DNA of 64,000 bases, from NCBI GenBank assembly GCA_964416595.1, contig CAYQES010000003.1, forward strand, positions 1,419-65,418, read 5' to 3'. How positions within the stretch are numbered: the first letter of the stretch is position 1; every line of letters begins with the position of its first letter. This DNA is from an uncultured Bdellovibrionales bacterium (GTDB lineage: Bacteria > Bdellovibrionota > UBA1018 > CAIPTA01). The notes under the pieces were generated by a model that searched no databases, was not told where the DNA came from, and was given only the letters and a program-made list of their open reading frames with translations. Shown piece after piece: positions 1,040 through 20,723 of the stretch. The translations under genes and the position numbers were made by a program.

Positions 1040-1057
1040 ACACCTTATGATCAAGCC

Positions 1058-1474: not shown

Positions 1475-1699
1475 ATGAAAACTCCTCAACGATTTTGGTT
1501 TGCATGCTTTTTCGCTCTCGCCTTACTCATAGGCAATTTTGTGTACGGAAAAATCTTTTCTGTTCCTTCCTCCCAGGAGTCTAAAACCACCGCCAGAATC
1601 CTCCACGCTGTGGATCTAACTTCCGTAAAAACCCAACCCATATCCGCCACCATCCTAGGCATATCGGAAGCAGTGGCTTCCCCTAAGCACAACCAATAG
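1475..1699 (+). CDS. small hydrophobic hypothetical protein
   Basis: 74-aa ORF with an N-terminal hydrophobic segment (FWFACFFALALLIGNFVY). No recognisable family. Confidence 0.3.
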   Translation: MKTPQRFWFACFFALALLIGNFVYGKIFSVPSSQESKTTARILHAVDLTSVKTQPISATILGISEAVASPKHNQ

Positions 1700-1711
1700 A
1701 GCCAATTGTAA

Positions 1712-3959
<2,248 letters not shown>

Positions 3960-3963: not shown

Positions 3964-4595
3964 AAATCTGGGATATCAGCCCGCTTTTAAGTGAGAAAAC
4001 TGCTGTGTTCCCGGGGGACGTGCCTTTTTCCCGGGAGATGAGTTTGTCTTTTACGGGTGGCGATCATTTGGATCTATCTTCCATCCGCACCACTTTGCAT
4101 CTTGGCGCCCATGCGGATTCCAGTTCCCACTATCATGCCAATGGAGAGGGTGTGGATAAGCGGCCTTTGGAAAATTACCTCGGCAATTGCCAGGTGATTG
4201 CGGTGAAAGTTCCCCGGGGGGAACGCATTCTGCCAAAACATATTTCTGTAGAAATCCAAGCCAAGCGCGTTCTTTTCCGCACAGATTCTTTTCCCAATCC
4301 CGACCAATGGAATGGAGACTTTAATTCCCTCTCGCCAGAGTTAATTGAATTTTTAGCCGATCGGGGCGTGGTACTTGTAGGAATTGATACCCCCAGTGTG
4401 GATCCGGCAGACTGTAAAACCCTCGATTCCCACCAGGCTCTTTACCGCCGCAAGCTTTCTGTGCTGGAAGGCATTATCCTGCACCAGGTGAAACCGGGAC
4501 TTTACACCTTAGTTGCCTTGCCACTGCCGCTGAAAGATGGGGACGCCTCCCCCGTACGTGCTATCCTTTTGGAGAAGAACCGGCTCGAACCTTAA
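3960..4595 (+). CDS. cyclase-family hydrolase (kynurenine formamidase KynB / isatin hydrolase-like)
   Basis: Cyclase-family metal-binding motif HLGAHADSSSH, ~210 aa. The TTG start overlaps the upstream stop. Confidence 0.65.
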
Positions 4596-4604
4596 GAGGC
4601 ATTC

Positions 4605-5012
4605 ATGCGATCTCTCCTTTTGTGTTTTTTGCTACTTGTTTCCTGCTCCAGCTCAGAGCCCTCTCCGGAGGCCGAAGAAGCGGCCAGCATTGAAAATACC
4701 GACAATTGCCTAGCCAACTCAGAACTTGCGCGCCAGTGGGGAGAATGCAATGTAAAGCACACCATTTATGGTGGCAGGAGCGGCATCGGCAATTGCCATC
4801 GGAAATTTGGTCGCGATCCAAAATCCGCGGATACTACCATTTTGAAAATTCGTTTATTGCCTACGGGCAAAGTGCGAGACGTGAAAGCCGAAGAGGCGGG
4901 TCCCCGGAATAAATCTTTGGAAAATTGTTTGTCGCAGGTGATTGCTAAATTGCAGTTCGCAGCTCCGCCTAAGGGCGTGAAGCCCGTGATCTATGTGCCG
5001 TTTCAGCAGTAG
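4605..5012 (+). CDS. lipoprotein with a TonB-C-like C-terminal domain
   Basis: Lipobox LLVSC. The C-terminus (TILKIRLLPTGKVRDVKAEEA...VKPVIYVPF) resembles the TonB_C / energy-transducer fold. Confidence 0.45.
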   Translation: MRSLLLCFLLLVSCSSSEPSPEAEEAASIENTDNCLANSELARQWGECNVKHTIYGGRSGIGNCHRKFGRDPKSADTTILKIRLLPTGKVRDVKAEEAGPRNKSLENCLSQVIAKLQFAAPPKGVKPVIYVPFQQ

Positions 5013-5071
5013 AAAAATCTAAGCGCTAGAGTTAACGCGCCGCTTGTCCGGCGCCGGACTTTTCATCGCGA
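5013..5071. repeat. REP-like palindromic element, copy 1 (core GTCCGGCGCCGGAC)
   Basis: aaaaatctaagc...gttaacgcgccgcttgtccggcgccggacttttcatcgcga, starting immediately after a stop codon. A 41-nt core is identical to copy 2. Confidence 0.8.
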
Positions 5072-5165
5072 GATTTGTTCATATAAATTCGATTTGAAAT
5101 AGGCGCCCAGCACAACTCAATGCATCAAAATGCAACCACTCCGTTTCTGATCGTCTGGTGACAAT

Positions 5166-6095
5166 GTGTCCACAGAAAATGACACCACCATCTTCTCAAC
5201 AAAGCTTTCCCGGGCTAATAATGCTCCTATGCAAACGGAAGCACACTTAAACAACATCAATTTACCAAAAATCTTTGAGTACCAATCCCCGCAGGAATAT
5301 CTGGTTCAATATTTCACCTGGATGAAATCCCGTAATAAACGGATGTCGCTGCGATCCTGGGCTAAGATGATGGGCTTGAGGGACCATAGCTTGCTCGTTC
5401 TCCTCTTAAAGGGAAAGCGCCCTGTGCGGCAACAGCATATAGATTTTCTTTTACGCGGATTAACAGTTTCTGAATCTGAAAAACGTCGCTTTAAATTGCT
5501 AGTGCAAGCGGCCAACACTCAGGACGAGGAAGAGCGATTACTATTGTTAAATAGCTCCGCACCCCACGAACAAATTGAGCTGGAGCTCGAAACCTTTCGT
5601 CTTATTTCCCACTGGATTCACCTTGCCATCTTAGAAATGACAGAGCTAAAGGGATTTCGCCCCGAACCAGATTGGATCGCTGCCCACCTGGACCCACCCA
5701 CTTCAAAAACTGAAATCGTTTCCGCCTGGGATCGTTTGGTGCGTTTAGGTTTGGTAAAAGAAGTAAAAGGTAAGTGGAAAAAAACCAATCGCGCCCTTAC
5801 TACTTCCGGTAAAAGTAGCAACCAAGCGGTTCGCGCACATCACCGCCAAATGATCGATTTAGCTAAAAGATCCGTAGACACGCAGTCCATCCAGGAACGC
5901 ATTCTAAATAGCTGTACGATGACTATCGACAGCAAAAAAATCTCGCTGGCCCAAGATATCATTTTGGAATTCCGCAAAAAAATGGAAGCCCTAGTGGAAA
6001 CTCCCGGCGGTGATTCCACTTACCAATTATCGGTGCAGTTTTTTCGTTTATCTAGACATCCTGAAATCAAGAAAAATAAAATGGAGGAAAAATGA
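5166..6095 (+). CDS. TIGR02147-like family protein (Bdellovibrio/Fibrobacter paralogous family, putative HTH)
   Basis: The N-terminal pattern F.Y..P.EYL..YF.......S.R..A...G.....L..LL.GKR matches my recollection of TIGR02147 proteins. Confidence 0.5.
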   Translation: MSTENDTTIFSTKLSRANNAPMQTEAHLNNINLPKIFEYQSPQEYLVQYFTWMKSRNKRMSLRSWAKMMGLRDHSLLVLLLKGKRPVRQQHIDFLLRGLTVSESEKRRFKLLVQAANTQDEEERLLLLNSSAPHEQIELELETFRLISHWIHLAILEMTELKGFRPEPDWIAAHLDPPTSKTEIVSAWDRLVRLGLVKEVKGKWKKTNRALTTSGKSSNQAVRAHHRQMIDLAKRSVDTQSIQERILNSCTMTIDSKKISLAQDIILEFRKKMEALVETPGGDSTYQLSVQFFRLSRHPEIKKNKMEEK

Positions 6096-7336
6096 AGTTC
6101 AATTTTGTCGAGCGTAATGCTCTTAGTATTCTGTTGGCGATTTGTGTTCTCAGTTTAAGTGCTTGTGGAAACAAGCAAGACAATAATCAAGAAAATGGAA
6201 CACAATCCCCCACACCACAACCTACGACGCAGCCAAAAATGGAAGACGGCAGCGGCCCGGGCAATGGCGGAGGAGCCATTGTTCGCAATGGCAACGTGCT
6301 TACGCTGGCGCAAGCTGGAATCGAAATCCCCATCACCGAAGCTCAACCATCGGAAAATCTTGAAGAAGTGAAAGTGGTGGCCGCTCTCATCGAAAAATTG
6401 GCCCTCAGCGATGGCATCCGCGGCAACCTACTTCGATCGCTAGAACCAAATGGCGCGAGGAAATACTTCAAAATCGAAGCTAAAGATTTGAATCCCGAAA
6501 AACGCGCTAAGCTGTTGGCGGCGTATTATTCGGCTATTGGCCAAGTAGTTCCGCCGGAGGACAAACTAACTCTTGTAGCTTTAACCATTGGATCGGAAAC
6601 CTTTCTCTTGCCCGAATTTTACCAGCTGAGCGATGCGACCGCTCGAGCTGCGATTCTATTCCACGAAGCCCTTTGGGTGCGAAATCCTAAAATACGCCTT
6701 AGTTCCGTTTTGCGAGCGGAGATCGCAGTGGAAAAGCTACTTCGCTCGGGGTCAATCAGCAAGAATATCATTTATGACTTTGAACTATTCCAAGTGTTGA
6801 AAGAGGCGCTGGAAGACAAACACCTAGGTATGGTGGGAGCAATCCGCAAAGATTTTGAAAAAGGCTCGATAAAAATTCATCTGCCGAATAACTTAGGCGC
6901 TCCCATTATCAAAACGCTAGAAAAGCCTCATTTTCCTATCCGCTGGCTGCTGGGTGATATTGTAGTGGAAGAATTGAGAACAAGCATGGAACTCAATAGA
7001 GATGCTTTTTACGGTTATATCTATTACTTTTCCAAACTCAATCCCTCGCTCCTCTTTTTGAGAGAGCTGCAACTTTTGATACCAGACATTAAAATAAATT
7101 TTATTTCCTACGATCTCGAGTGGGAAGGCCTAAATAACAACCAATGGTATCAACCAGAAAAGATAGGCGAAGAGTTTTTTGATCTCTCTCAATCGTGGAC
7201 CATGGCCGTGAGAGGACCCAATGAAAATAAATATTGTGACATTACGGGATTCATTGCTCGTGGTGGAACTTTGAACATCAAGGGAAATGTAGCCATGAAC
7301 TTTTCTGTTGATACTACTTTCTGTAGCTATAGGTAA
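6092..7336 (+). CDS. lipoprotein, hypothetical (GNGGG ... FHEALW motifs); paralog-like to 18922..19782
   Basis: Lipobox LSLSAC. The start overlaps the upstream stop. It shares the GxGNGG(G/D) and LxHE(A/Y)LW motifs with the ORF at 18922. Confidence 0.6.
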   Translation: MKFNFVERNALSILLAICVLSLSACGNKQDNNQENGTQSPTPQPTTQPKMEDGSGPGNGGGAIVRNGNVLTLAQAGIEIPITEAQPSENLEEVKVVAALIEKLALSDGIRGNLLRSLEPNGARKYFKIEAKDLNPEKRAKLLAAYYSAIGQVVPPEDKLTLVALTIGSETFLLPEFYQLSDATARAAILFHEALWVRNPKIRLSSVLRAEIAVEKLLRSGSISKNIIYDFELFQVLKEALEDKHLGMVGAIRKDFEKGSIKIHLPNNLGAPIIKTLEKPHFPIRWLLGDIVVEELRTSMELNRDAFYGYIYYFSKLNPSLLFLRELQLLIPDIKINFISYDLEWEGLNNNQWYQPEKIGEEFFDLSQSWTMAVRGPNENKYCDITGFIARGGTLNIKGNVAMNFSVDTTFCSYR

Positions 7337-7365
7337 AATATCACTTTTTCACTGAAGGAGATTTT

Positions 7366-7971
7366 ATGAGCAGAGTAATATTTTCAATTTGGATTGTGCT
7401 AGTTCTAGTTGCTTGCGGACCAGCCCAAACAGGCCTAACGCAGCAGAACGCTTTAATCACAGACAATCTAAGCACCAATAGCAATTGGCTAGAGCATGTA
7501 GGAAAATACGTAGCAGAGGATGCCACTTACCCTGTGGGTAAATACACCAAAACTTTGTCTTTGGATCGAACGGATGTGTTTCATGATAAGTGCGCAAAAT
7601 ATAGCCCTAATTACAAAAGATGCCTCGAGTGGGAAAAAGAGTTTTTCGAAATACAAATGTATGTGGGGTACGTTGTAAAAGAAAACAATTTCATTTCAAA
7701 AAATGCTTCCGCAACAATACTTTTCACTCCAGAGGGTACTTTGAAGCAAATATATGGTGATGAAATTAGCTTTTCTAAATCCGGCGAGCTCCTCATAAAA
7801 AATTTTTGGGGAAATCAATTCAGTAATGGTTCTGATGCGAACATGATCCACCAAGAAGATCGTTTCCGATTCACGGAAGGAAAGATTTTCGGCAAGGAGC
7901 GAATCTTTGATGAGCGGGGTGAAAAGGTGATTTACGAACTCGAAAGCCCTTTTCTGCCTGTGCAAGAATAA
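7366..7971 (+). CDS. lipoprotein, hypothetical
   Basis: Lipobox LVLVAC. RBS GGAG upstream. No recognisable domain. Confidence 0.55.
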   Translation: MSRVIFSIWIVLVLVACGPAQTGLTQQNALITDNLSTNSNWLEHVGKYVAEDATYPVGKYTKTLSLDRTDVFHDKCAKYSPNYKRCLEWEKEFFEIQMYVGYVVKENNFISKNASATILFTPEGTLKQIYGDEISFSKSGELLIKNFWGNQFSNGSDANMIHQEDRFRFTEGKIFGKERIFDERGEKVIYELESPFLPVQE

Positions 7972-7985
7972 GATTTCTATTTTTA

Positions 7986-8020
7986 GGGAGGAATAGCTTG
8001 TAAACTATTCCTCCTTTTTG
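7986..8020 (+). terminator. rho-independent terminator
   Basis: GGAGGAATAG-cttgtaaa-CTATTCCTCC followed by TTTTTG. Confidence 0.65.
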
Positions 8021-8032
8021 CCATCCCTTCAG

Positions 8033-8091
8033 GAAAATCTAAGCAGAAAAGTTAACGCGCCGCTTGTCCGGCGCCGGACTTTTCATCGCGA
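8033..8091. repeat. REP-like palindromic element, copy 2
   Basis: gaaaatctaagc...gttaacgcgccgcttgtccggcgccggacttttcatcgcga, a 41-nt exact match to copy 1. Confidence 0.8.
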
Positions 8092-8247
8092 ATAAAAGAA
8101 TATTTTTCTGATCTACAGAGTGAAAAAGCAGACCATTTCATCGTATTCAACATTCAAGTTTTTCCTGTATAAAAACCACTCTGCCGCCCCGCGCCACGCC
8201 GCCCTCTCCCCTTTCCTTCCGCCCCGCTTTCGCCTATCTTTGTACCC

Positions 8248-9795
8248 ATGTCAAAAACCCAAGAACAGGCCTTCGCCGCCCTTCAGGAAAAACTTGTCGC
8301 CAGTGAGTTTCCCGCAGGGAAAGATCGAGTAGAAAAACAACACCAAGCCGGAAAACTCTCCGCCCGGGAAAGGATTAACCTACTCCTCGATGCCGGCTCC
8401 TTCCAAGAGCTCGATCGCTTTGTCACCCACCGCTGCACAAGCTTCAGCATGGAAAAAAACCAGCCCTTGGGCGATGGCGTGATCACGGGCTTTGGCAAAA
8501 TCGATGGCCGCCTTGTGTATGTTTTCTCCCAGGATTTTACGGTTTTTGGCGGATCCCTCTCGGGCGCCCACGCGGCCAAGATCTGTAAACTCATGGATCT
8601 CGCCGTAAAGAACGGAGCCCCCGTGATTGGCCTGAATGATTCCGGCGGCGCACGCATCCAAGAAGGCGTGGAAGCCCTTGGCGGTTACGCCGAGATTTTT
8701 TGGCGGAACGTGCAGGCGAGCGGCGTGGTGCCCCAGATTTCCGTGGTGATGGGCCCTTGCGCTGGGGGTGCTGTGTATTCCCCCGCCATCACAGATTTTA
8801 TTTATATGGTGGAAAAAACGAGCTTCATGTTCGTGACCGGGCCCGACGTGATCAAAACCGTTACCCACGAAGAGGTTTCTAAAGAAGAACTCGGTGGCGC
8901 CGGCACCCATAGCGAAACAAGTGGCGTGGCGAGCTTCGTGGCTTCCGATGATGCGGGAGCCCTCAGGCAGGTGCGAAAACTTATTTCTTACTTGCCGCTC
9001 CATAATGGTGAAATGCCGCCGGCCAAAGAAAACGCGGAACCCGCCGATCGAGATACCCAAGCCATTCTCTCGATCTTGCCCGATAGTTCACAAAAGCCTT
9101 ACGACATGAAGCGCCTCGTGGAAGATGTGCTGGACGAAAACTCTCTCTACGAAGTGCACGAAAACTACGCCCGGAATATCTTGGTGGGCTTTGGCCGGAT
9201 CGAAGGCCGCACCGTGGGCGTGGTGGCGAACCAACCCATGCACCTTGCGGGCTGCTTGAATATTGATGCTTCTAGAAAAGCAGGAAGGTTCGTGCGCTTC
9301 TGCGACTCTTTCAACATTCCGCTCCTCACCTTCGTGGATGTGCCTGGGTTCCTGCCCGGCACGGACCAAGAATTTAATGGCATCATTGTCCACGGCGCAA
9401 AACTTCTCTATGCCTTTGCCGAAGCCACGGTACCTAAAATCACGGTGATCACCCGGAAAGCCTACGGCGGCGCCTATGATGTGATGGCCTCGAAACACAT
9501 CCGCGCGGATTTTAATTTCTCTTACCCCAATGCGGAAATCGCCGTGATGGGCCCAGAAGGCGCAATCAATATTTTACACCGGGAAAAAGTGGCCAAGGAT
9601 CCAAAGCTAGCGCCAAAATTAGTGGAAGAATACCGGGATACTTTTGCCAATCCTTTCCGGGCCGCAGCCTTAGGGTATATCGACGAAGTGATCCATCCCA
9701 AGGATACGAGGAGAAAAGTAGCCGCCGCCCTCGAAGCTTGTCGCGGAAAACGGGAAGTGCGACCGTTCCGAAAACACGGGAATATTCCGCTGTGA
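8248..9795 (+). CDS. pccB: propionyl-CoA carboxylase beta chain / methylmalonyl-CoA carboxyltransferase
   Basis: Carboxyltransferase 12S-subunit hallmarks, 515 aa: [22 protein letters not shown] and the conserved C-terminal half. Confidence 0.85.
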
Positions 9796-11288
9796 AAAAA
9801 CTCCCCTTCTCCAAAATTCTCGTGGCCAACCGGGGCGAGATTGCCTTGAGAGTAATTCGTGCCGCCCGGGAACTGGGGCTGCAAACCGTGGCCGTTTATT
9901 CCGACGCAGATCGTGATTCTCCCCATGTGCTCTTGGCCGATGAGGCTGTGCACCTCGGCGAAAGCGAAGCCAAGAAAAGTTACCTCGTGCCCGAAAAAAT
10001 CCTCGCCGCCTGCAAAAAAACCGGCGCCACAGCCATTCACCCAGGCTTTGGTTTCCTTTCGGAGAACGCAGATTTCGTGCGCGCTTGCACTAAAGCTGGT
10101 TTAACTTTTATCGGCCCGAGCGCCGAGGCCATGGATCTCATGGGCGATAAACTGAGCGCGAGAGCCGCCATGAAAGCCGCCGGTGTGCCCACGGTTCCCG
10201 GGAGCGAAGGCGCCTTGAAATCTTTGGACGAAGCCAAAAAGCTCGCCAAAGAAATTGGCTTTCCCGTGATCTTGAAAGCCGCCGCCGGTGGCGGTGGCAA
10301 AGGCATGCGGTTGGCCCAGAACGCGGCGGAATTAGAAAATTTCTACGAGAGCGTAAAGCGGGAAGCGCAAAATTATTTTAACGATGATGCGGTTTTTCTC
10401 GAACGCTTTGCCAAAAATCCCCACCATATCGAAGTGCAAATCCTCGCCGATTCCCACGGCAATGTTTGCCATCTTTTTGAACGGGAATGCTCCGTGCAGC
10501 GCCGGCACCAAAAAGTGATTGAGGAAGCGCCTTCACCTTTTCTTCATGGGTATGATGACGTTCGCCAAAAGCTTTTTGCCGTGGCCGTAGAAGGCGCCAA
10601 GCGCATTAAATACGTGAACGCGGGCACCATGGAATTCGTGATGGATGGCGACCGCAATTTCTATTTCCTAGAAATGAACACTCGTATCCAAGTGGAACAT
10701 CCCGTAACGGAGATGATCACGGGCATCGATATCGTAAAAGAGCAAATCCTGATCGCGGCTGGTCTCCCGCTTTCTTTTCGCCAAGAAGATCTTACCGCCC
10801 GGGGAGCTGCCATCGAATGCCGCCTCTACGCGGAAAACCCCTTCACCTTTTTGCCCTCCCCCGGCCCCGTAAAAGAACTGGTACTTCCTGGTGGCCCTTT
10901 CGTGCGCGTGGATAGCGCCATGCAAAGTGGGCAAGTAATTCCCTTAGAGTACGACCCCATGATCGCGAAACTTTCCGCCTGGGGGAGAACGAGAGAGGAA
11001 AGTCTCCACCGCATGCACCGGGCCTTAGCGGAAACGGGAGTGGCGGGCTGCCTTACGAACCTAGGATTTCTACGGCGCTGTATGGAAAATCCTATTTTCC
11101 AAAAAGGCGATTACACCACGGGCTTTATTAAAGAGCAGGAAAAGGTGCTCGCCAATCCCGCAAGCCTGCCTCCCGGCATTCAGACGGAAGAAGAGTTTCA
11201 GGCATTGTTAGCGCTGCTCGCCCGTACCGAAACCCCCAACGCAGTAAAAAGCGAAAGCGCCGCTTGGTGGAGAACACATGTCCGATAA
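9792..11288 (+). CDS. biotin carboxylase subunit (acetyl/propionyl-CoA carboxylase alpha, BC domain only)
   Basis: ATP-grasp biotin carboxylase motifs ([32 protein letters not shown]). The GTG start overlaps the pccB stop (GTGA). Confidence 0.85.
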
Positions 11289-11796
11289 AAACTACACTCC
11301 CGCCAGCGGCTTCCTCTACGAAGTGAAAAAAAATGCCCAAGGTGGCTTAGACGTAAAAAAATCCGGCGATAAAAAAGGTTCTTCCGTGAGTGTGGAGCTC
11401 ACCCCTACCCCCATCGATAGCCAAACCAAACGGGTGCTCCGTAGTCATGGAGAAAACCGGGATCTTTTCTGGGTCTACGCCAAAGGCAATAAAAGAATTC
11501 TCTCCTGGCCCGGGGGCTCCATTGAACTAGAAGCCTCCGAAGGCAGCGAAAACAATGGCGCCGGTGGCGGAGCCTTGAAGCCCTTGAAACTCACCATGCC
11601 GGGAAAAGTCTTAAGCGTAAAAGTAAAAGAAGGCGACCTCGTGGAAGCCAACCAGGGACTCGTGATCGTGGAAGCCATGAAAATGGAAAACTTGCTGCTA
11701 GCTCCGGCCAAGGCCAAAGTCACCAAAGTAATGGTGAAAGAAGGGGATCGTTTAGAATCTGGCGCCACCCTGCTCACCTTTGGGCCTGCAGAATGA
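11278..11796 (+). CDS. biotin carboxyl carrier protein
   Basis: C-terminal biotinyl domain with EAMKMEN (biotinyl-lysine). The start overlaps the upstream gene. Confidence 0.7.
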
Positions 11797-13361
11797 AAGA
11801 TTTGTCTAAATCCAAAAATGTAACTCCCTCGGGCTTAGCTCTTAAAAACTACTACGGCCCCGAGCAAGGCAAACCCGGCGAATTCCCTTATCAGAGAGGC
11901 GTGCACCCCGATATGTACCGGGGCCGCCTCTGGACAATGCGCCAATACGCGGGCTTCGGCACCGCCGAAGAGAGCAACAAACGCTATCGCTATTTATTAT
12001 CCCAGGGCACCACGGGCCTCTCCGTAGCTTTCGATCTGCCAACCCAGATGGGCTACGATTCCGATCATCCCATGGCCTTGGGGGAAGTGGGCCGCGTGGG
12101 CGTGGCGATCGATACGCTGGCGGATATGCGAACCTTGTTCCAAGGAATTGATTTAAGCCGCGTGACCACTTCCATGACCATCAATTCTACGGCCTCAATC
12201 CTCCTCGCCCTTTACATCGCCGTAGCCGAAGAGCAGGGCGCGGATTTAAGTAAAATTTCGGGAACGATCCAGAATGATCTTTTGAAAGAATACATCGCCC
12301 GCGGCACCTACATTTATCCCCCACGAGCGAGCTTACGAATCATCACGGATATTTTTGCCTACTGCCGGGAATCGGTGCCCAAATGGAATCCGATTTCCAT
12401 TTCCGGCTACCACATCCGAGAAGCGGGCTCCACGGCGGCCCAAGAGATCGCTTTTACGCTGGCGAACGGTTTCACCTATGTGGATGCGGCCCTAAAAGCC
12501 GGACTCACCATCGATCAATTTGCGCCCCGCCTCTCCTTTTTCTTCAACGCCCATAACCATCTCTTAGAAGAAGTAGCCAAATTCCGGGTGGCCCGAAAAA
12601 TATGGGCGGAAACTTTGAAAGAAAAATACGGCGCCAAAGATCCTAATTCTTTAAAACTCCGTTTCCACGCCCAAACCGCAGGCTCCATGCTTACGGCCCA
12701 GCAACCCATCAATAATGTGGTGCGGGTGGCGATGCAGGCCCTGGCCGCAGTGCTGGGGGGGGCCCAAAGCCTCCATACAAACGGTTTCGACGAAGCGCTA
12801 TCGCTGCCCACAGAAGAAAGCGCCCGTCTAGCGTTACGCACCCAGCAGCTTATTGCCTATGAAAGTGGTGCTGCCGACGTGGCGGATCCCTTAGGCGGCT
12901 CCTATGCGGTGGAAGAACTAGGAAAAGAGCTAGAACGCATCGCCCGCTCGTATCTACTAGAAATCGAAAAACGGGGCGGCATGATTCCTTGCGTGGAATC
13001 GGGCTATGTACAAAAAGAAATCCAGGAGGCCGCTTACCGCACCCAAATCTTGATGGATAAGGGCGAACAGCTGCAAGTGGGCGTAAATTGTTTTGAGGCC
13101 GAAGAAGGCACCCCTCCAGAGCTCCACACCCTGGATCCCAAACTGCAAAGTCGCCAAATCCAAAAATTGCAGCAGTTTAAAAAAAGCCGAAATCAGAAAA
13201 AAGCAGCAGATGCTATCAAGCATCTTAGAGTGGTGGCCATGGGCTCTGAGAACCTCATGCCCGCAATTTTGCACGCCGTGAAGAATCACTGCACCCTAGG
13301 CGAAATTAGCGATGCGCTTAGAGGCGTGTTTGGAAAACACAAAGAAATCCTTACGGTTTAG
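11793..13361 (+). CDS. methylmalonyl-CoA mutase family protein, catalytic (substrate-binding) domain only
   Basis: Strong match to the mutase N-terminal TIM-barrel domain ([26 protein letters not shown]...). It ends at 522 aa without a B12-binding domain. Confidence 0.8.
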
Positions 13362-13526
13362 CCCTGTCTCCGTTCGGAGACGTTCGTGAAAATCGCAGCA
13401 GTCAAATAGTTGGGCAAGGTATCCATTCTGATACAGGGAACTTTCCTGTGTAAAATCCAGCTTCTTTTTTCGGCATTCCGGTTGCACTTACCCAAGCAAG
13501 CGTAAAACAAATTTTTGGGGGTATTT

Positions 13527-14249
13527 ATGAAAACTTTATTCTTCACCTACTTCTTATTAGTTAGCTTAGAGGCGCAAGCTGATCTTAAAATGGAAGTCGA
13601 AATATTAAACACGCATCATAATGCCGCTATCGCAGCATTAAATGAGATTAAAAAAGAAGCCCCTAACTGCACAGATTTAGCCGCCGGTGCCATCACTGAT
13701 GCAGTAAATGAAGCTCAAACCAAACTAATAGCCATCAATGAAAGCCTCAACGGAGCAGCTGCGGCTATGTTGATTAATACTATAAATGAAAATTCTTGCA
13801 CTATGCCATCTATGAATGAAATCCAATCTATGCATTCAGCCACAGAGCTTGTGCAAAGCGGACTGGCTGAAATCCAAGAAGAAATTCAGAAAAACGATAA
13901 AGAAATCCTCTATCGCCTTTCTGGTTCTGATAGTAAAAATAGTTCCTGTAAGAACCAAACTCCTGGAAATAAAAACACCTCCAAGGCCTCCCTTGCCTAC
14001 CAAGCTTTCAAAAATGAAATAAAAAACTACAAATTAACGAGCGATAGAATCCAACTCGAATTAGCAGGCCTTCCTAATATGACTAAAGGTGGAAGCACAG
14101 TATTGGCGGATACATCTAATGCTTGCAGTAACAAAAACACTGCAGCCTTATGGAGCCAGGAGTTTGTGCAGAAAGCTGCTTTCAGTGGCGATCGCGCTCC
14201 CGCTTTTATCCAGAACAACGGAAACAATTGGTCCGAGCAAGCTCTGTAA
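13527..14249 (+). CDS. secreted hypothetical protein
   Basis: Signal peptide (MKTLFFTYFLLVSLEAQA). RBS GGGGGT upstream. Confidence 0.55.
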   Translation: MKTLFFTYFLLVSLEAQADLKMEVEILNTHHNAAIAALNEIKKEAPNCTDLAAGAITDAVNEAQTKLIAINESLNGAAAAMLINTINENSCTMPSMNEIQSMHSATELVQSGLAEIQEEIQKNDKEILYRLSGSDSKNSSCKNQTPGNKNTSKASLAYQAFKNEIKNYKLTSDRIQLELAGLPNMTKGGSTVLADTSNACSNKNTAALWSQEFVQKAAFSGDRAPAFIQNNGNNWSEQAL

Positions 14250-14275
14250 TTCCTTAAAGCCCCCCAAACCCCCTG

Positions 14276-14311
14276 CCCGTTCTAGTTTCCCCCGACTAGG
14301 ACGGGTTTTTT
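14276..14311 (+). terminator. rho-independent terminator
   Basis: CCCGTTCTAG-loop-CTAGGACGGG followed by TTTTTTATTTT. Confidence 0.55.
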
Positions 14312-14607
14312 ATTTTATGCACAATAAGCAAAGGCAAAAAAGTCCGGCGCCGGACAAGCGGTGCAGCATTCGTAGACGTCTCACGCTCGTAAATGTAAGC
14401 ACATATGAATATCTTCGATTTTTTGTCCATAGACCCGGAAGAGATCCGGCACGCGCCCGAGCTCCCGAAAACCTGTGGTCTGATTTCCGTAAATTCCACG
14501 GGCGTAAAAATAAAATCCCCATCCCTGCCGGATTCTTTAAACAAGCGCAATTCGTGTTGCTGGTAGAGAGGAAGATCGGCCGCTTCGGCTAAACGAATCT
14601 TCAGCAC
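14296..14607 (-). pseudogene. remnant of a GNAT acetyltransferase paralog (N-terminal ~34 aa conserved, then degenerate)
   Basis: MLKIRLAEAADLPLYQQHELRLFKESGRDGDFIF aligns with MHIRPLQAADLMMLARHELRHSRENGRDGDFIF of the intact GNAT at 49018..49551. Similarity is lost downstream and the REP copy lies inside the ORF. Confidence 0.4.
14337..14364. repeat. REP-like element, copy 3 (centre plus right arm)
   Basis: aaaagtccggcgccggacaagcggtgc. Confidence 0.7.
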
Positions 14608-14612
14608 GAAAC

Positions 14613-15563
14613 CTACTTCTTATACAGCCCAATTTCCCGCAGGCGCTGATTCAAATACTCGCCGGCGGTGATATTGGGGTAACGCTTTTCATTCAAGCGC
14701 TGAATAGAACGCGGCAATGGGCTTAGATCCACTTCGGATCGAGGATGCACAAAAAACGGCATGGAGAAACGGCGCTCCCGGGAATTGCCGGGATTTACCA
14801 CGCGATGGGTGGTGCTTTTGAGCAAGCCGTTCGTGAGGTTTTGCAACATATCGCCCGTGTCCACGATGATCTGGCCTTTTAAAGCGTGGATCGGCAGCCA
14901 TGTGCCATCCCGGCGGAGGAGCTCGAGTCCGCCAGCGGTGGCTTCGCACAATAAGGTGATAAAATTAATGTCTTCATGGGCACCGGCGCGGATGCTTTGG
15001 GGATCACGATCGGCGGGAACTTCTGGATAGTTGATGATCCGTAGGATCGTGTTGCCGTCTTTTGCCATGCTCGGTAAGAGATCTTTCGATTCACCGATAT
15101 AGAGAGAACAGGCTTCCAAGAGTTGCATGGAGCAAACGTCCAACTGGCGATAGAGCTCCAGCATCACTTCTTTAAATTCCGGAATTTCCTTCGGCCAAAC
15201 GTTGGGTGGGTAGACTTCCAAAAGTGGATTACCAGGATTCAACTCCCGGCCCACATGCCAGAATTCTTTTAGGTCTGGTGCTTTATGATCCTTCGCGTGT
15301 TCCCGGCCAAAGCTCGTAAAACCCCGCTGGCCTTTTAGTTCTAAATCTTCGTAGGAACGTTTATTGGATTCGGGAAGGTCAAAAAAAGCAGCAGCTAATT
15401 GATAGGCCTTTTCGATGAGCCGGTAATCTACGCCATGGTTTTGGAGAGCGAAGAAACCCATATCCTTCAGGGCATCTCCCATGCGGCCCACAAAGGCCTC
15501 CTTTTGGCCCTGGGAGCCACGTAAGTACTCCTGCAGGTCTACTACTGGGATTGTTTGATTCAT
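14613..15563 (-). CDS. 2-oxoglutarate/Fe(II)-dependent oxygenase (isopenicillin N synthase-like)
   Basis: HxD...H triad (AHEDINF, TTHRVVNP) plus RFSMPFF arginine. Start taken at the internal Met (MNQTIPVVDLQEY); the ORF track extends 11 codons to a GTG. Confidence 0.7.
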   Translation of the reverse strand: MNQTIPVVDLQEYLRGSQGQKEAFVGRMGDALKDMGFFALQNHGVDYRLIEKAYQLAAAFFDLPESNKRSYEDLELKGQRGFTSFGREHAKDHKAPDLKEFWHVGRELNPGNPLLEVYPPNVWPKEIPEFKEVMLELYRQLDVCSMQLLEACSLYIGESKDLLPSMAKDGNTILRIINYPEVPADRDPQSIRAGAHEDINFITLLCEATAGGLELLRRDGTWLPIHALKGQIIVDTGDMLQNLTNGLLKSTTHRVVNPGNSRERRFSMPFFVHPRSEVDLSPLPRSIQRLNEKRYPNITAGEYLNQRLREIGLYKK

Positions 15564-15701
15564 TGCTCCCCCTTTTGCAAGGAGAACTAACCGCACCCAG
15601 TGCGCTTGGTCAAGAGCGGAATAAGCTGCCCCCTTTAATTGTTGATAGACATGCGGATTCGCTCTTATAGTAGGGCTTTCTTGACCAATTTGGAGCTATT
15701 A

Positions 15702-16460
15702 ATGTTGGATCTATTTTCCTCCCCCGAAGTCTGGCTAAGCCTCTTGATGTTGACCTCCATGGAGGTGGTGCTGGGGGTAGATAACCTCATTTTTATCAGC
15801 ATTCTGGCGGGGCGCTTGCCCGAACACCAACGGGACAAAGCCCGCAAAGTCGGATTGCTCGGGGCCTTTGTAACTCGGCTAGGTTTGTTAGCGATCATCA
15901 GCTGGATCGCAGGCCTCACGGCTCCTTTATTTTCAGTGATGGACCGGGAGTTTTCCGGAAAAGCCCTAATCTTGTTTGTGGGGGGCCTATTTCTCCTCTA
16001 CAAAGCCACCACCGAAATCCACCACAAACTGGAGGGCGAAGGCCACGGCGGCAGTGCGGCCCAAAGAGCCGCGACTTTCATGGCCGTGATCCTGCAAATC
16101 ATGCTGCTGGATTTAGTGTTTTCCTTGGATTCTGTGATCACCGCCGTGGGCATGAGCGATCACATTCCCGTGATGGTGCTCGCAAATATTATTGCCCTCG
16201 CTGTGATGCTGGCTGTGGGTGGTGCCTTGAACCGTTTCATCGAGCGGCACCCTACGGTGAAAATGTTGGCATTGAGTTTTTTGTTGATGATCGGCCTCGT
16301 GCTCATGGGCGATGGCTTAGGTTTTCACATCCCGAAAGGTTATGTGTACTTCGCCATGGGCTTTAGCGTGATGGTGGAAATGATTAATTTGCGGATTCGC
16401 TCCAAAGGGCAGCCTGTGCAGTTGAATCCCGGTAGCCCACAGCCGGGAGCGCCGAAATAA
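15702..16460 (+). CDS. TerC-family integral membrane protein
   Basis: Multi-TM protein with TerC motifs (EVVLGVDNLIFISIL, LLDLVFSLDSVITAVGM). Alternative upstream start at 15639. Confidence 0.75.
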   Translation: MLDLFSSPEVWLSLLMLTSMEVVLGVDNLIFISILAGRLPEHQRDKARKVGLLGAFVTRLGLLAIISWIAGLTAPLFSVMDREFSGKALILFVGGLFLLYKATTEIHHKLEGEGHGGSAAQRAATFMAVILQIMLLDLVFSLDSVITAVGMSDHIPVMVLANIIALAVMLAVGGALNRFIERHPTVKMLALSFLLMIGLVLMGDGLGFHIPKGYVYFAMGFSVMVEMINLRIRSKGQPVQLNPGSPQPGAPK

Positions 16461-16561
16461 ATTTTTGTATTTTGATGACTAAAAATAGCGCCTTGCAAAT
16501 TTAGACCCAACGCGTTATTCCTCCTCGCGCTTATTAATACAAATATCACGCAGGAGATTTT

Positions 16562-16942
16562 ATGAAATTCGTTCTTATCGCCATCCTCGCTCTCGTGGCC
16601 ACCAATGCCCAAGCCGCCACCCGCAAAGTGGAAAAAGAAACCATTATTTGCGACGGCATCGAAGAATCCAAAGGTTACAAGCTTGTACTGAAAGCTAAAA
16701 GCCAATCAAACGTAGAAGAAAAAGCTATTGCTTACTGGGCTACCCTCGATCAACCCGATGGCATGGGCTACGAAGGTTTGATCTTTGGTTATAAATCAGA
16801 TGTATATCTTAATCTAAGGCCTAAGCGTAATGGCAATGTTCAAGTAAGCGGCACCATCTACATGGACGATGCCGAGCAAGAGCTAGAGTATGAAATCGCC
16901 GACGGCACGGTGATCAATCTTCACCTTAACTGCCATCTTTAA
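16562..16942 (+). CDS. small secreted hypothetical protein
   Basis: Signal peptide MKFVLIAILALVATNAQA. RBS AGGAG. Confidence 0.5.
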   Translation: MKFVLIAILALVATNAQAATRKVEKETIICDGIEESKGYKLVLKAKSQSNVEEKAIAYWATLDQPDGMGYEGLIFGYKSDVYLNLRPKRNGNVQVSGTIYMDDAEQELEYEIADGTVINLHLNCHL

Positions 16943-16956
16943 ATTGAGTGAATGAG

Positions 16957-16990
16957 AGGCCCGCGCTGAGAAAGCGTGGGCTTTTATTTT
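16957..16990 (+). terminator. rho-independent terminator
   Basis: AGGCCCGCGCT-gagaaa-GCGTGGGCTT followed by TTATTTT. Confidence 0.5.
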
Positions 16991-17045
16991 CGAGCGGTAG
17001 AGTATACTCTCCAAGTAATACTCTAAATAGGTTTTTAAATAAAAT

Positions 17046-17447
17046 ATGTTCTTACTATTTTTACTTCTAACCACTTCCGTTCAAGCGGATCAAATTTGGT
17101 CGCCCGACAAATCCTACCATGTAGATGTATACGCAAATATGAACTACCGCTGTCGTAAAAATAAAGAGGTGGTGAATTTTGTGTATTACAACAATGGAAC
17201 AGATCCCCTCTTTCTTAACTCGTGCGCTGTCACTTATCATTATTCAAAATGCCCCAACCCAATGAGTGGTGACGGGGGCGGGCCCAATGATCTTCGCTGC
17301 CCTGAGAGTAAATGGAAAATGATAACCCCAGAAAAATCTCTCTTTACCTCCGTAAAAAGCAAGAAAGCTTGCGTAGAGAAAATTGAAAAGAAGTTGGAAA
17401 AGCTTAAGGCCCAAGGTTTTGCTTGTGAAAAGAGCGCGATCAATTGA
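17046..17447 (+). CDS. small secreted Cys-rich hypothetical protein
   Basis: Signal peptide followed by 8 Cys in 115 aa. Confidence 0.5.
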   Translation: MFLLFLLLTTSVQADQIWSPDKSYHVDVYANMNYRCRKNKEVVNFVYYNNGTDPLFLNSCAVTYHYSKCPNPMSGDGGGPNDLRCPESKWKMITPEKSLFTSVKSKKACVEKIEKKLEKLKAQGFACEKSAIN

Positions 17448-17457
17448 TCAAAATTCT

Positions 17458-18048
17458 ATGGAACGCATAAAAATTTTAGAAGAAATAAGAGCCATCGCTA
17501 CCACGGGCTTAAATTTCGTCCGCAGCCCTTACGATAAAGAAAACTACGAGCGTCTACTGGAATTAAGCGCGGCTGAGTACGCGGCAATCTTTGGGATGGA
17601 GCCTAAAGAAGTTCTCCACAGGTTTCAAAAAGAAGTGGGCTATGTAACCTGCAAACTTGGGGTCAACGCCGCCATTTTTCGAGGCGATAAAATTTTACTC
17701 GAGCAACGGGTGGACGACCAATACTGGGGCATCCCTGGAGGATGGGTTGACGTAAACGAAACTCCCGAAGAGGCCGTGAAACGAGAGCTGCAAGAAGAAG
17801 CTTCTTTGAAAGTTCGCGTTGAAGGCATTATCGAGATTTTTTCTAGACCCGCTGGGCAATTTAACCAGCCCCATAGTTCTTGCCACATTCTCTATTTTTG
17901 CTTAGCCGACGCGGGCGATCCAAAAAAATCCCACGAGTCTCTGCAGCTAGGTTTCTTTGGATTAGAGGAAATTCAAAATTGGCATAGGGATCATAGGTTA
18001 TGGGCAGAGAAGGCTTTTCGTTTTTATCGCGCCAATACGCAGAACTAG
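17458..18048 (+). CDS. NUDIX hydrolase
   Basis: Nudix box GGWVDVNETPEEAVKRELQEEASL. Start taken at MERIK, after the stop of the upstream gene. Confidence 0.75.
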   Translation: MERIKILEEIRAIATTGLNFVRSPYDKENYERLLELSAAEYAAIFGMEPKEVLHRFQKEVGYVTCKLGVNAAIFRGDKILLEQRVDDQYWGIPGGWVDVNETPEEAVKRELQEEASLKVRVEGIIEIFSRPAGQFNQPHSSCHILYFCLADAGDPKKSHESLQLGFFGLEEIQNWHRDHRLWAEKAFRFYRANTQN

Positions 18049-18076
18049 AAAAAGTCCGGCGCCGGACAAGCGGTGC
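18049..18076. repeat. REP-like element, copy 4
   Basis: aaaaagtccggcgccggacaagcggtgc, immediately after the NUDIX stop. Confidence 0.7.
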
Positions 18077-18165
18077 TTCATATGTTTTCCACTGCTACCA
18101 ACTGGAAAACACTTTGTTTTCCTTTTCCTTGCGGATTTTTGTTTCTGTAGCTATAGCTAGGCCCC

Positions 18166-18921
18166 ATGAACACAGACTATGTTGCCTGCCTAATTAATGA
18201 ATACGTGGCCCGCAAAGCACTCAATAACAGTTATTCCGAGCGCGCTTTTGCCAAAAATCTTGGCGTATCACCTGGGTTTCTTAAACTGCTGTTTCAAAAA
18301 AAGAAGCACTTGAGCCCAGCACGTGCCAAAGATTTTTCGAATCGGTTATCGTGGAATGAAAAGAAAAAAAGAATTTTTCTTAAATCTGTTTTGCACACAG
18401 CATCCGCCCGGAGAGGTAGCATTGGTCGAAGCTATAAACGCAAAATCCCTGCAACAGAATTCTTTGAAGTATCCGATTGGTTTTATTTTGCGATCATAGA
18501 ATTTTTAAAAGTGAAAAATGGATCCGTTTCGGAAGAGGAAATGGCTGCCGCGTTTCGCCTAAATAAAACCGAGGTTCGCTTTGCCTTAGATCGATTGCTA
18601 GAATTAAAAGTAGTTCAGAAAAAGAATACTCACACTTATTCTATAGCGGATCATTATGAAATCCCATCTACCTCCTCAGAGGCAATACGAAAATACCACC
18701 GACAAACGCTGAATAAAGCAATAGAGGCTATTGATTCACAATCTTTTACAAAACGCGATTTTAGAGCCTTAACATTAGCGTTCGATTCTCAGCGCGTAGA
18801 TGAAGTAAAAAAATTCATTGAAAATTTTGTAAGTGCTTTTGACAAAAAATTTTCTGCAGAAAATTTGGACAGTGTTTATCAATTAAATGTGGCGTTCTTT
18901 CGCCACGATAAGGAGAAGTAA
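18166..18921 (+). CDS. TIGR02147-like family protein (second paralog)
   Basis: Same N-terminal pattern as 5166..6095 (Y...L...Y.........S.R.FAK.LGVSPGFLKLL...KK.LS). Confidence 0.5.
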   Translation: MNTDYVACLINEYVARKALNNSYSERAFAKNLGVSPGFLKLLFQKKKHLSPARAKDFSNRLSWNEKKKRIFLKSVLHTASARRGSIGRSYKRKIPATEFFEVSDWFYFAIIEFLKVKNGSVSEEEMAAAFRLNKTEVRFALDRLLELKVVQKKNTHTYSIADHYEIPSTSSEAIRKYHRQTLNKAIEAIDSQSFTKRDFRALTLAFDSQRVDEVKKFIENFVSAFDKKFSAENLDSVYQLNVAFFRHDKEK

Positions 18922-19782
18922 ATGGTACAGTTAATACAAATTATTCTTTGCGGATTACTTTCAATGCCCACATGGGCCGATGATGGCGGCACAGTTGGCA
19001 ATGGGGGCGATCACAGCGCCATGGAATTCGTGGCTTATGGTTACGATCTTTACGACTATTTTCAACAGCACGGCGTGGGCTCATTGCCAATAAAATCCAA
19101 TAAATTCCTAGAAATACTACAATCCACGCGAGTGGAAACAGTGGATGAATTAAAACTCAACGGTGCAACACTTGATGCCGTTAACTATCCGGATAAGAGG
19201 CTTATTCAAATCGATCGGGATCGTTGGCTCACACTACGGCATCAAACAAATGCAGCGATGACCCTCGTTTTGCACGAATACCTTTGGATCATGGGTATTG
19301 ATGATTCTGAATATAAGCTGTCCCATCTTTTCTGGAACCGAATTACGGCCAGGAAAGCCACGAGCAAGGATTTTTCTAAAGGATTTGTCTGTACGTATGG
19401 GGCAGAAATCTCTTTGCTCGAGCAAATAAAGTTCACCAAAATGGAATCTGGTTACAAAGTAGAAGTACGACACTTTTCTGATGGCAAGTTCGTTAGAGGC
19501 TACGCTACCGAAATGCTCTCCTGCCAGATTTCGCCTTTTGATGGCCGCGTAGTGGAATGTGAAAAAATGATGGGATCTAAGCGAGTGGCTTATTTCTCCA
19601 GCGGAATTTCTTGGTCACGCGGCCTTTCCATAAAAGGCCCTCACGAATCCAACTGGTTTAGAAGCCAACTTAGCAGCGTGGAGCAAGATAAATCTTACTC
19701 TTATCCCGGCTCACGATGGAAAGCCGGCACCAGCTTATCCTTCGATTTTGCCTTGGAAAATTGTGTGGATGTTTTTTATTGA
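18922..19782 (+). CDS. secreted hypothetical protein (VGNGGD ... LHEYLW motifs); paralog-like to 6092..7336
   Basis: Signal peptide. Starts 1 nt after the TIGR02147-like gene stop. Confidence 0.55.
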   Translation: MVQLIQIILCGLLSMPTWADDGGTVGNGGDHSAMEFVAYGYDLYDYFQQHGVGSLPIKSNKFLEILQSTRVETVDELKLNGATLDAVNYPDKRLIQIDRDRWLTLRHQTNAAMTLVLHEYLWIMGIDDSEYKLSHLFWNRITARKATSKDFSKGFVCTYGAEISLLEQIKFTKMESGYKVEVRHFSDGKFVRGYATEMLSCQISPFDGRVVECEKMMGSKRVAYFSSGISWSRGLSIKGPHESNWFRSQLSSVEQDKSYSYPGSRWKAGTSLSFDFALENCVDVFY

Positions 19783-19804: not shown

Positions 19805-19817
19805 AAAAGTCCGGCGG
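19805..19817. repeat. partial REP-like half-site
   Basis: aaaagtccggcgg only. Confidence 0.3.
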
Positions 19818-19889: not shown

Positions 19890-20672
19890 CTACTTTTCAA
19901 AGCGTAGAATCGCCTTTGCTCCCGTTACTCTACCTTTCAAGCTAGGCAGATACTCCGCTTCCGCCAGAAACTGCTTCAGCAGCGCGGCGCCCTTCAAAGT
20001 TGGATTCTTGCGCATAAAGGCCGCAAGCTTACCAGCCGCCACAGCCATTCCAAACCCATCCGAAAGGAAAGAAACGCGACGCTCTCCATCCACGGGAGCG
20101 CTCAAGTCTACTCCCGGAACCGCCAATCTTACTAAAGGTCCGTAAGAAGCAAAATCCGCTAGGCCCGTGAGCTCAGAATTTAGAATCGTCACAAATAATA
20201 TATTTCTCGCCGCGCATTTTGTGAAAAATGGGCTGAGCGTATAGCCAATGCTACCTAACGTGACCAAAAAAGCGGTTTCTGTTTTTTCCGCCATCCTGGT
20301 GCACATTTCCTCAACGCCATCGCCGCTCAGTGGCGCCAGCACAATGGCTGAATCCCGACTCGCAATATCTATGGCCGTATACACATCAGCAAGTGAAGCA
20401 TTTCCTCCCTCCTGAAGAACTTGGATTGTCTGGGCGGATTGTGCGCCGTTTTTCCAAGAAAAATAGAGAACACCTGTGGTGAAATCTGAGAAATTGTTTC
20501 CAGGCACGAGTGCCACATGATTCTTCACCACTTCTTGCACAAAGGGCATTTGCTGATTTCCGGTTCCAAGAAGCATAGCCAGCTCGTAAATCGTTTCAGC
20601 TTTTGCGCCAGCCGCGCACAAGAAAGAAAGAAAACAGATCGAAAATATTCGTAAGCTCATTAAATTTTTCAT
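19890..20672 (-). CDS. secreted hypothetical protein
   Basis: Signal peptide (MKNLMSLRIFSICFLSFLCAAGAKA) and a strong RBS GAGAGG before this Met; the ORF track extends 17 codons upstream. Confidence 0.55.
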   Translation of the reverse strand: MKNLMSLRIFSICFLSFLCAAGAKAETIYELAMLLGTGNQQMPFVQEVVKNHVALVPGNNFSDFTTGVLYFSWKNGAQSAQTIQVLQEGGNASLADVYTAIDIASRDSAIVLAPLSGDGVEEMCTRMAEKTETAFLVTLGSIGYTLSPFFTKCAARNILFVTILNSELTGLADFASYGPLVRLAVPGVDLSAPVDGERRVSFLSDGFGMAVAAGKLAAFMRKNPTLKGAALLKQFLAEAEYLPSLKGRVTGAKAILRFEK

Positions 20673-20723
20673 AATTACCTCTCTAAAATTTGTTTTGTAT
20701 TGCTGAAATTGGAATAGGTGCAT

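Follow-up and report, generated by a model that had tools for sequence, protein, structure and literature searches.

Two TIGR02147/DUF4423 genes coupled to genes of exported GNGG proteins with a predicted zincin fold in an uncultured Bdellovibrionales bacterium

Two gene modules, in each of which a gene of the TIGR02147/DUF4423 family is followed directly by the gene of an exported protein, are located on a contig of an uncultured Bdellovibrionales bacterium (GenBank assembly GCA_964416595.1, contig CAYQES010000003.1, positions 1,419 to 65,418 of the forward strand). This whole stretch of 64,000 nucleotides (nt) is referred to as the window, and all positions are counted within it. A preliminary description had proposed two copies of a two-gene module at 5166..19782, composed of a TIGR02147-like protein and an exported protein with two short motifs in common. 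All four open reading frames (ORFs) were found where this description had placed them. The genes of module 1 were named A1, B1 and C1 and those of module 2 A2 and B2:

5229..6095, plus strand: A1, TIGR02147/DUF4423 protein of 288 amino acids (aa); the ORF reaches back to a GTG at 5166
6092..7336, plus strand: B1, exported lipoprotein with a zincin-like core
7366..7971, plus strand: C1, small lipoprotein, third gene of module 1
18166..18921, plus strand: A2, TIGR02147/DUF4423 protein of 251 aa
18922..19782, plus strand: B2, secreted protein with a signal peptide and a zincin-like N-domain

While the first ORF (5166..6095) was confirmed, its start at GTG 5166 was not. A1 probably begins at ATG 5229, because the protein collection lists the resulting 288-aa product and because the frame opened by the GTG is stopped in two orthologous loci, by an early TAA in L088 and by a TAG in L093. 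In view of the same stops, GTG 5166 was rejected both as the A1 start and as the start of a conserved leader peptide. The proposed coupling of each A gene to its B gene is borne out by the gene junctions. The B1 ATG at 6092 overlaps the A1 TGA (ATGA, 6092-6095) with GGAGGA 4-9 nt upstream, and the B2 ATG at 18922 comes immediately after the A2 TAA and is preceded, at a distance of 7 nt, by AAGGAG, so that a Shine-Dalgarno sequence precedes both B genes. C1 begins 29 nt after the B1 stop codon, and GAAGGAG is located 6 nt before its ATG. Thus, the A-B pair is found in both modules as described, but module 1 holds C1 as an extra coupled gene. Weak conservation of C1 (24-28% identity) was seen behind the B1-type genes of L001 and L003, and a gene of C1-like size and position follows the B1-type gene in L088 and L093. 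The proposed span likewise encloses both modules but also about 10 kb of unrelated housekeeping genes; propionyl-CoA carboxylase and methylmalonyl-CoA mutase genes stand between the modules. The most likely reading is that A and B form a small operon in each module, being co-transcribed and translationally coupled.

Both A proteins were searched with the curated models TIGR02147 (NCBIfam; cut-off 50 bits) and DUF4423 (Pfam PF14394; cut-off 30 bits). A1 reached 164.8 bits (E = 2.6e-48) with TIGR02147 and 125.5 bits with DUF4423, and A2 reached 88.9 bits (E = 3.7e-25) and 101.4 bits, with alignments near full length in both proteins. The family assignment suggested for the two upstream proteins therefore holds in this hidden Markov model (HMM) test. 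A1 and A2 are 27% identical (E = 6e-21) and are the only two DUF4423 genes in the window. A1 has a putative N-terminal Xre/HigA-type helix-turn-helix (HTH), a putative central winged helix and a conserved C-terminal YQLSxQFFR. When a profile of eight A members was compared with the Protein Data Bank (PDB), it matched the HigA/lambda cI HTH at residues 17-70 (E = 4e-4 for the antitoxin HigA, the best PDB sequence match of A) and the MarR-type winged helix of AdcR at residues 130-196 (E = 8e-3). Weak Pfam matches of the A family were to HTH_3/HTH_31, TFIIE_alpha, GntR and Lrs14. We regard A as a cytoplasmic protein with two putative DNA-binding domains. The TIGR02147 ('Fsuc_second')/DUF4423 family, to which A1 and A2 belong over their full length, had been annotated before in Bdellovibrionota and Fibrobacter; new here are its reading as an Xre HTH combined with a winged helix and the observation that the gene of an exported protein is its recurrent partner. 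A literature search returned no function or gene partner for TIGR02147/DUF4423, and the sole relevant item was an entry in a proteomics table, according to which the DUF4423 protein Bd3700 of B. bacteriovorus is up-regulated during growth in prey (PMC12546842).

Export of the two downstream proteins, B1 as a lipoprotein and B2 as a secreted protein, agrees with their N-termini. B1 carries the lipobox LSLSAC (...VLSLSAC-G) followed by a low-complexity linker of 30 aa, and the C1 lipobox is LVAC (...LVLVAC-G). Both lipoboxes were read from the sequence and show the pattern [LVI][ASTVI][GAS]C that closes an N-terminal hydrophobic segment, and weak NCBIfam matches to lipoprotein signal models were obtained. 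B2 possesses a Sec-type signal peptide without a lipobox. Residues 57-61 of B1 form GNGGG, H191 and E192 are part of HEALW, and an invariant E210 is positioned 19 residues after H191; the C-terminal half is helical and then beta. In B2, GNGGD (residues 26-30) leads into the zincin-like N-domain (residues 30-147), which contains HEYLWIMGIDD at 118-128 followed by Y131 and S134.

The two motifs that had been noticed in B1 and B2, GNGG and HE(A/Y)LW, are both present and in this order. Among the 256 ORFs of at least 60 aa in the window, only B1 and B2 combine GNGG with HExL[WG], and these are exactly the ORFs downstream of the only two DUF4423 genes. In alignments of B1 homologues (10 sequences) and B2 homologues (14 sequences), the GNGG and HE motifs were the most conserved columns. 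A profile of the B2 family retrieved 2502 cluster representatives (clusters at 50% identity) at E<=1e-3 and 1403 at E<=1e-10 from 1.84 billion proteins. Residue conservation was counted in the best 156 of the 2502 sequences, which are about 25% identical to each other and in which the conserved portion comprises the N-terminal ~140 residues. G29, A86, W102, H118 and E119 were present in 100% of them, N88 in 99%, D30 and S134 in 98%, Y131 in 95% and D128 in 94%. The position four residues after the His is Gly in 84% (HEYLG) and Trp in 7%. No model in Pfam or NCBIfam covers this exported domain.

To a large extent, relatives of B2 differ in what follows the conserved part. In 105 B2-type relatives, the C-terminal fusions included LRR (16), outer-membrane beta-barrel (15), WD40 and Ank domains, and members with a complete HExxH carry Kelch propellers or Ank at the C-terminus. 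The B2-type architecture is a constant enzymatic or binding head joined to exchangeable targeting or anchoring modules. For residues ~150-286 of B2 itself (19360-19782), about eight short beta strands ending in ...VDVFY were predicted with low confidence. Given the barrel fusions in relatives, it is a possibility that these C-terminal 140 aa act as a small barrel anchor; the Pfam model OMP_b-brl did not match B2.

We examined whether the A-B arrangement recurs in other genomes. A scan of one genome per species, for which the pattern was derived from a 5-sequence A1-like alignment so that the proportions hold for the A1-like part of the family, yielded 121 DUF4423 loci, 80 of which were fetched. 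Nearly all of the 80 belong to Bdellovibrionota (Bdellovibrionales, Bacteriovoracaceae, Halobacteriovoraceae, Oligoflexia), and a few are metagenome-assembled genomes (MAGs) of Fibrobacteres, Chitinivibrionales and Myxococcales. A downstream ORF was counted as coupled if it lay on the same strand, comprised at least 100 aa and started between -45 and +120 nt from the DUF4423 stop codon. Such an ORF was found in 69 of the 80 loci, with an exact 4-nt overlap in 32 and a hydrophobic N-terminus in 60 of the 69. GNGG occurred at residues 13-90 in 31 of the 69 downstream ORFs, compared with 3 of 339 control ORFs from the same loci. A strict signature was then defined as a hydrophobic core, G[NGS]GG or GNG[TGSD], and two hydrophobic residues plus HE 60-230 residues later. 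It was present directly downstream in 41 of the 80 loci, and a six-frame search of the +-4 kb flanks gave no further occurrence. Individual homologues that were looked up gave the same picture. Those of B1 (L001, L002, L003, L088) and of B2 (L004/5, L006/7) all stand directly after a DUF4423 gene, and the A1 relatives in L091 and L093 are likewise followed by such exported proteins, giving 8 of 8. The repeated cassette of regulator and secreted protein put forward for the window is therefore a recurrent one.

A distinct arrangement was observed for a 266-aa DUF4423 subfamily, which lacks a downstream partner and is accompanied by a divergently transcribed gene for a secreted protein with GG(V)G(G/S)GGGG and HE(Y/F)SHLVGA, i.e. 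a full HExxH:

L002: DUF4423 gene at 561-1361, minus strand; divergent secreted gene at 1491-2558, plus strand; downstream, PadR and a HAAS-domain gene
L089: DUF4423 gene at 4001-4801, plus strand; divergent secreted gene at 2757-3869, minus strand; downstream neighbour tex

The association thus outlasts a change of orientation, which is easier to reconcile with a regulator and its target than with an obligatory complex of fixed stoichiometry.

Further partners of DUF4423 genes were relaxed motif variants, small secreted proteins, lipoproteins without HE, a second DUF4423 gene, or nothing. Partners without HE, which are small secreted proteins or lipoproteins, were recorded in L030, L031, L041, L047 (~135 aa), L045, L063, L068, L069, L074 and L076; they include Fibrobacteres and Chitinivibrionales examples, and several contain V-G-N-G/S/P soon after the signal peptide or lipobox. 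Pfam gave nothing informative on them except propeller repeats in L074. In L038, L042, L056 and L082 the ORF after the DUF4423 gene resembles a second DUF4423 paralogue (YSLRAFAR..., WYHIAIL...), which suggests tandem regulator genes.

Could the two short motifs have arisen by chance in unrelated proteins encoded behind paralogous regulators? A direct BLASTP comparison of B1 with B2 produced nothing significant, and an HMM of the B2 N-domain scored the B1 family below 6 bits, mostly over the signal peptide and GNGG. Profile iteration from the B1 family with trimmed signal peptides stopped at 16 sequences and did not reach B2. Profile-profile comparison with hhalign, in contrast, connected the two. 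The first small family alignments gave a probability of 21% and the B1 family against the 156 B2-type sequences gave 62%; a 14-sequence B1 family reached 90.9% (E = 1e-6) with the B2 N-domain. An intermediate 'GNGGx..C..HExxY' subfamily was matched by the B1 family at 94% and itself matched B2 at 97%. The confidently aligned part is short in these comparisons, with 16-37 columns around the HE helix, and amounts to 16-23 columns for B1 and B2. The homology of the two downstream proteins, which the preliminary description had left to be checked, was accordingly missed by BLASTP and HMM searches but supported at 91-97% probability by profile-profile comparison and intermediates. Moreover, structure models of B1 and B2 share identical top structural matches. 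We accept B1 and B2 as remote subfamilies of one superfamily because the profile-profile match is accompanied by a shared N-terminal motif and a shared gene context, the sequence evidence alone being modest. Given in addition that both motifs occur in precisely two of 256 ORFs, each after a DUF4423 gene, and that the same arrangement is seen in 41 of 80 independent loci and never in the flanks, mere coincidence is hardly credible.

The structure models provide a first view of what the exported domain might be. The B2 model reached a predicted local distance difference test (pLDDT) value of ~90 over residues 30-147, and its C-terminal 140 aa are beta-rich and poorly predicted. Structural matches of B1 and B2 were all zincin metallopeptidases or zincin-fold hydrolases. 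The best ones were aspzincins (M35 deuterolysin, peptidyl-Lys metalloendopeptidase), minigluzincins (selecase, abylysin, jannalysin) and snapalysin (M7); the top Foldseek match of the B2 model was selecase, a weak one (E = 0.035, probability 0.98). In these short-domain zincins the His-Glu of B1 and B2 finds its counterpart on the corresponding helix. The B N-domain is therefore predicted, on the basis of these models, to have a zincin (metallopeptidase) fold and to represent a branch of it that had not been annotated before. It comprises a signal peptide or lipobox, GNGG(D/G), a small sheet and a helix, the 'active-site' one, on which His-Glu is invariant. The predicted fold of the downstream protein is new with respect to the preliminary description. 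To our knowledge, GNGG(D) right after the signal peptide has no counterpart in aspzincins, minigluzincins or snapalysin.

The putative metal site deviates from that of known members. Short-domain zincins possess a second His where the B family has Trp or Gly, and the HExxH that defines the zincin superfamily is replaced by HEALW and HEYLW in the two window copies. A complete HExxH was found in 14 of the 69 coupled downstream relatives, for example HEAGHFVGEKD, HESVHHFG and HEAAHHFG. Single-linkage clustering of phmmer matches placed the HExxH relatives and B2 in one cluster, and hhalign matched the HExxH subfamily to the B2 domain over 133 columns (93%), aligning GNG(T/G)D with GNGGD and HEAGHFVGEKD with HEYLWIMGIDD. 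According to this alignment, W122 of B2 stands where the canonical relatives have their second zinc-binding His, and D128 corresponds to the Asp of HExxHxxGxxD. This sequence is the extended motif of snapalysin-type metzincins, which the HExxH relatives of B2 share with snapalysin. Some relatives also gave sub-threshold Pfam matches to Zincin_1, Peptidase_M10, Aminopep and PhageMetallopep. B2 keeps Gly+7, Asp+10 and a Tyr three residues further on, which recalls the DxxY of aspzincins. Candidates for a third metal ligand are D128 in B2 and E210 in B1, the latter an invariant Glu 19 residues after the His that recalls gluzincins.

Taken together, these data suggest that the two-HTH regulator A controls an envelope-located, non-canonical zincin-fold hydrolase or binder B, an explanation that we consider rather probable. 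A would serve as a dedicated transcription factor of its own cassette, and B would act in the periplasm or at the outer membrane, in keeping with the lipid anchor of B1 and with the outer-membrane barrels to which relatives are fused. These fusions and the signal peptides make the envelope-related role envisaged earlier for the cassette plausible. On the predation-related role that had been suggested as the alternative, the rise of Bd3700 during growth in prey was the single experimental finding. B may still be a metal-dependent hydrolase with a non-canonical set of ligands, given the 94-100% conservation of His, Glu, Asp+10 and Tyr+13 among the 156 diverse B2-type sequences, and the same possibly applies to B1. 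The variable C-terminal part of B might choose the substrate, and B1 might work together with the lipoprotein C1.

A less probable, though by no means negligible, explanation is that B1 and B2 keep the zincin fold and have lost zinc binding and catalysis. They would then be exported binding or adaptor proteins with a structural or ligand-binding His-Glu, and A would still be a regulator. The N-terminal domain of anthrax lethal factor is a precedent for a zincin-fold protein with such a binding or adaptor function. This explanation accounts for the second His being replaced by Trp in B1 and B2 and by Gly or Trp in most of the 156 B2-type sequences, for the protein-binding nature of the LRR, Kelch, Ank and WD40 fusions and for the lack of any Pfam peptidase match above threshold. 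B1 in addition lacks the Asp of GNGGD and the Gly-x-x-Asp segment after the helix, and therefore at least B1 could be a pseudo-enzyme. Conversely, an invariant His and catalytic Glu among sequences of ~25% identity, together with Asp+10 in 94% and Tyr+13 in 95%, would be unusual for a dead site, and HExxH members belong to the same sequence cluster. Because His and Glu are invariant at this level of divergence, we favour the view that B2 retains non-canonical catalysis.

An Xre-type regulator adjoining a zincin-fold protein is also the layout of ImmR-ImmA, DdrO-IrrE and COG2856-Xre pairs, and BlaI-BlaR1 similarly combines an HTH repressor gene with a zincin-fold gene. B might correspondingly be a protease that cleaves its partner A and thereby derepresses target genes. 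HigA as the best PDB sequence match of A and the tight translational coupling, which suits interacting partners, are in line with such a switch. However, in the known systems the protease domain cleaves the repressor in the cytoplasm, while Sec or lipoprotein signals throughout the B family and the barrel fusions of some members would keep B apart from a cytoplasmic A. No Pfam match of B to Peptidase_M78/COG2856 or M56 was detected, PADLOC models gave nothing significant for the cassette that would indicate a defence or mobile-element context, tblastn against 50,697 phage and 72,556 plasmid records came back empty, and the window copies have no complete zinc site. A switch of this type is thus very unlikely. 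A regulator gene beside a zincin-fold gene is a known kind of system; the pair of DUF4423 and an exported GNGG zincin-like domain is undescribed, and a literature search found no description of it.

A different role is conceivable for the GNG(G) following the signal peptide. Because Gly-Asn-Gly(-Gly) is common to otherwise dissimilar DUF4423 partners (zincin-like proteins with or without HExxH, 130-aa secreted proteins, lipoproteins), it could be a sorting or processing tag, or the source of a released peptide that is sensed by the cytoplasmic DUF4423 regulator, instead of a part of the enzyme. We rate this as improbable. If a peptide were released, the cassette would be a Gram-negative counterpart of the pairs of regulator and exported propeptide in Firmicutes (RRNPP type).

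Several points weigh against control of an active or binding zincin-fold B by A, in addition to the negative pairwise and iterative searches and the short profile match of B1 and B2 described above. The second zinc ligand is absent in B1, B2 and most relatives, B1 lacks the Asp of GNGGD and the GxxD segment, and B-family profiles found no match among PDB sequences. In about one third of the survey, the DUF4423 gene precedes an exported protein of another kind or has no gene behind it. A mirror-tree analysis of A-B co-divergence in 47 pairs gave a non-significant Spearman coefficient of 0.055, which was reached in 166 of 2000 permutations; this lends no support to a specific A-B partnership, and evolution or exchange appears to be faster for B than for A. 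There is also no obvious reason why a transcription factor should be so tightly coupled in translation to a protein that is exported. Finally, regulation, localisation, catalysis and a role in predation are all inferred.

The cassette provides a testable context for TIGR02147/DUF4423, a sizeable family without assigned function that is prominent in predatory Bdellovibrionota and in Fibrobacter. Its members can be addressed as putative two-HTH regulators that are nearly always encoded beside an exported protein, in Bdellovibrionota usually one of the GNGG zincin-fold superfamily. Like the secreted proteases of Bdellovibrio (e.g. the prey-lytic ones, PMC12546842), the B proteins are exported, hydrolase-like and expanded in predatory bacteria, but B1 and B2 match none of the characterised predatory proteases. 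If active, they would constitute a diversified array of hydrolases acting on the envelope or on prey, each under its own regulation; if inactive, they would be a pseudo-peptidase radiation of unusual size. In both cases the cassette supplies defined pairs of regulator and target with which gene control in the predatory cycle could be studied, and the GNGG zincin-like domain would justify a new family definition in protein databases.

Composition and repeats set the modules apart from their surroundings. As stated in the preliminary description, they are AT-richer: the G+C content is 43.3% in module 1 and 41.4% in module 2 compared with 48.3% in the window, 51-54% in the housekeeping flanks and 53.6% in the carboxylase/mutase genes between the modules. 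A palindrome resembling repetitive extragenic palindromic (REP) elements, GCGCCGCTTGTCCGGCGCCGGACTTTT, has four full copies in the window (0.13 expected), all in intergenic, terminator-like positions. Two of them are embedded in a 61-nt direct repeat, which brackets the whole three-gene module 1, is found only at these two places in the window and resembles a scar left by insertion or duplication in an intergenic region with a REP element. The repeats and further elements around the modules are:

5011..5071, plus strand: left copy of the 61-nt direct repeat, beginning at the stop codon of the upstream gene, with the REP palindrome at 5034-5063
8031..8091, plus strand: right copy of the 61-nt direct repeat, 92% identical and 3020 nt from the left copy, with the REP palindrome at 8054-8083
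5034-5063 and 8054-8083, plus strand: full REP copies
14338-14365 and 18050-18077, minus strand: full REP copies in inverted orientation, the latter just upstream of module 2
19805-19816, minus strand: 12-nt half REP (AAAAGTCCGGCG), 22 nt after the B2 stop codon
50655-50668: REP-like match with 2 mismatches
5156..5188, plus strand: conserved block TGGTGACAATGTGTCCACAGAAAATGACACCAC of 33 nt, 41 nt upstream of the A1 ATG, with the partial dyad TGGTG...CACCA
18083..18122, plus strand: three copies of TGTTTTCC(A) in alternating orientation, between the REP palindrome and the A2 start

A REP copy shortly after both modules had been reported. This is only partly right: in module 1 the palindrome at 8054-8083 follows the third gene, C1, and module 2 is followed only by the 12-nt half copy. 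Full copies do stand upstream of both modules (5034-5063 and 18050-18077). We read the cassettes as chromosomal units inserted or rearranged at REP-containing intergenic sites. As they are low in G+C and bounded by REP elements, they may have multiplied and diversified in predatory bacteria as insertable units. In the orthologous three-gene modules of L088 and L093 the upstream neighbours differ. The block TGGTGACAATGTGTCCACAGAAAATGACACCAC, unique in the window, is near-identical across three species (1699-1731 in L088, 1709-1741 in L093), whose surrounding intergenic DNA has diverged, and it is a candidate non-coding promoter or operator. The TGTTTTCC repeats upstream of A2 could possibly serve as an operator or repeated binding site, or form alternative hairpins.

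Elsewhere, two cassettes in one genome, L006/L007 and L091/L092 (same metagenome and MAG), were seen among several PIN/PhdYeFM/FitA toxin-antitoxin pairs and an AbiEii gene in regions that appear to be variable islands. Within the window, a low-G+C ORF on the plus strand (13515-14249) encodes 244 aa with a signal peptide and without a Pfam match, and the REP copy at 14338 follows it. Two genes on the minus strand are convergent with module 2. The first (19890-20723) codes for a secreted protein without a Pfam match, and the second (20724-22085) for a 453-aa protein matching Pfam TGase_elicitor (E = 6.6e-42), a domain better known from oomycete elicitors.

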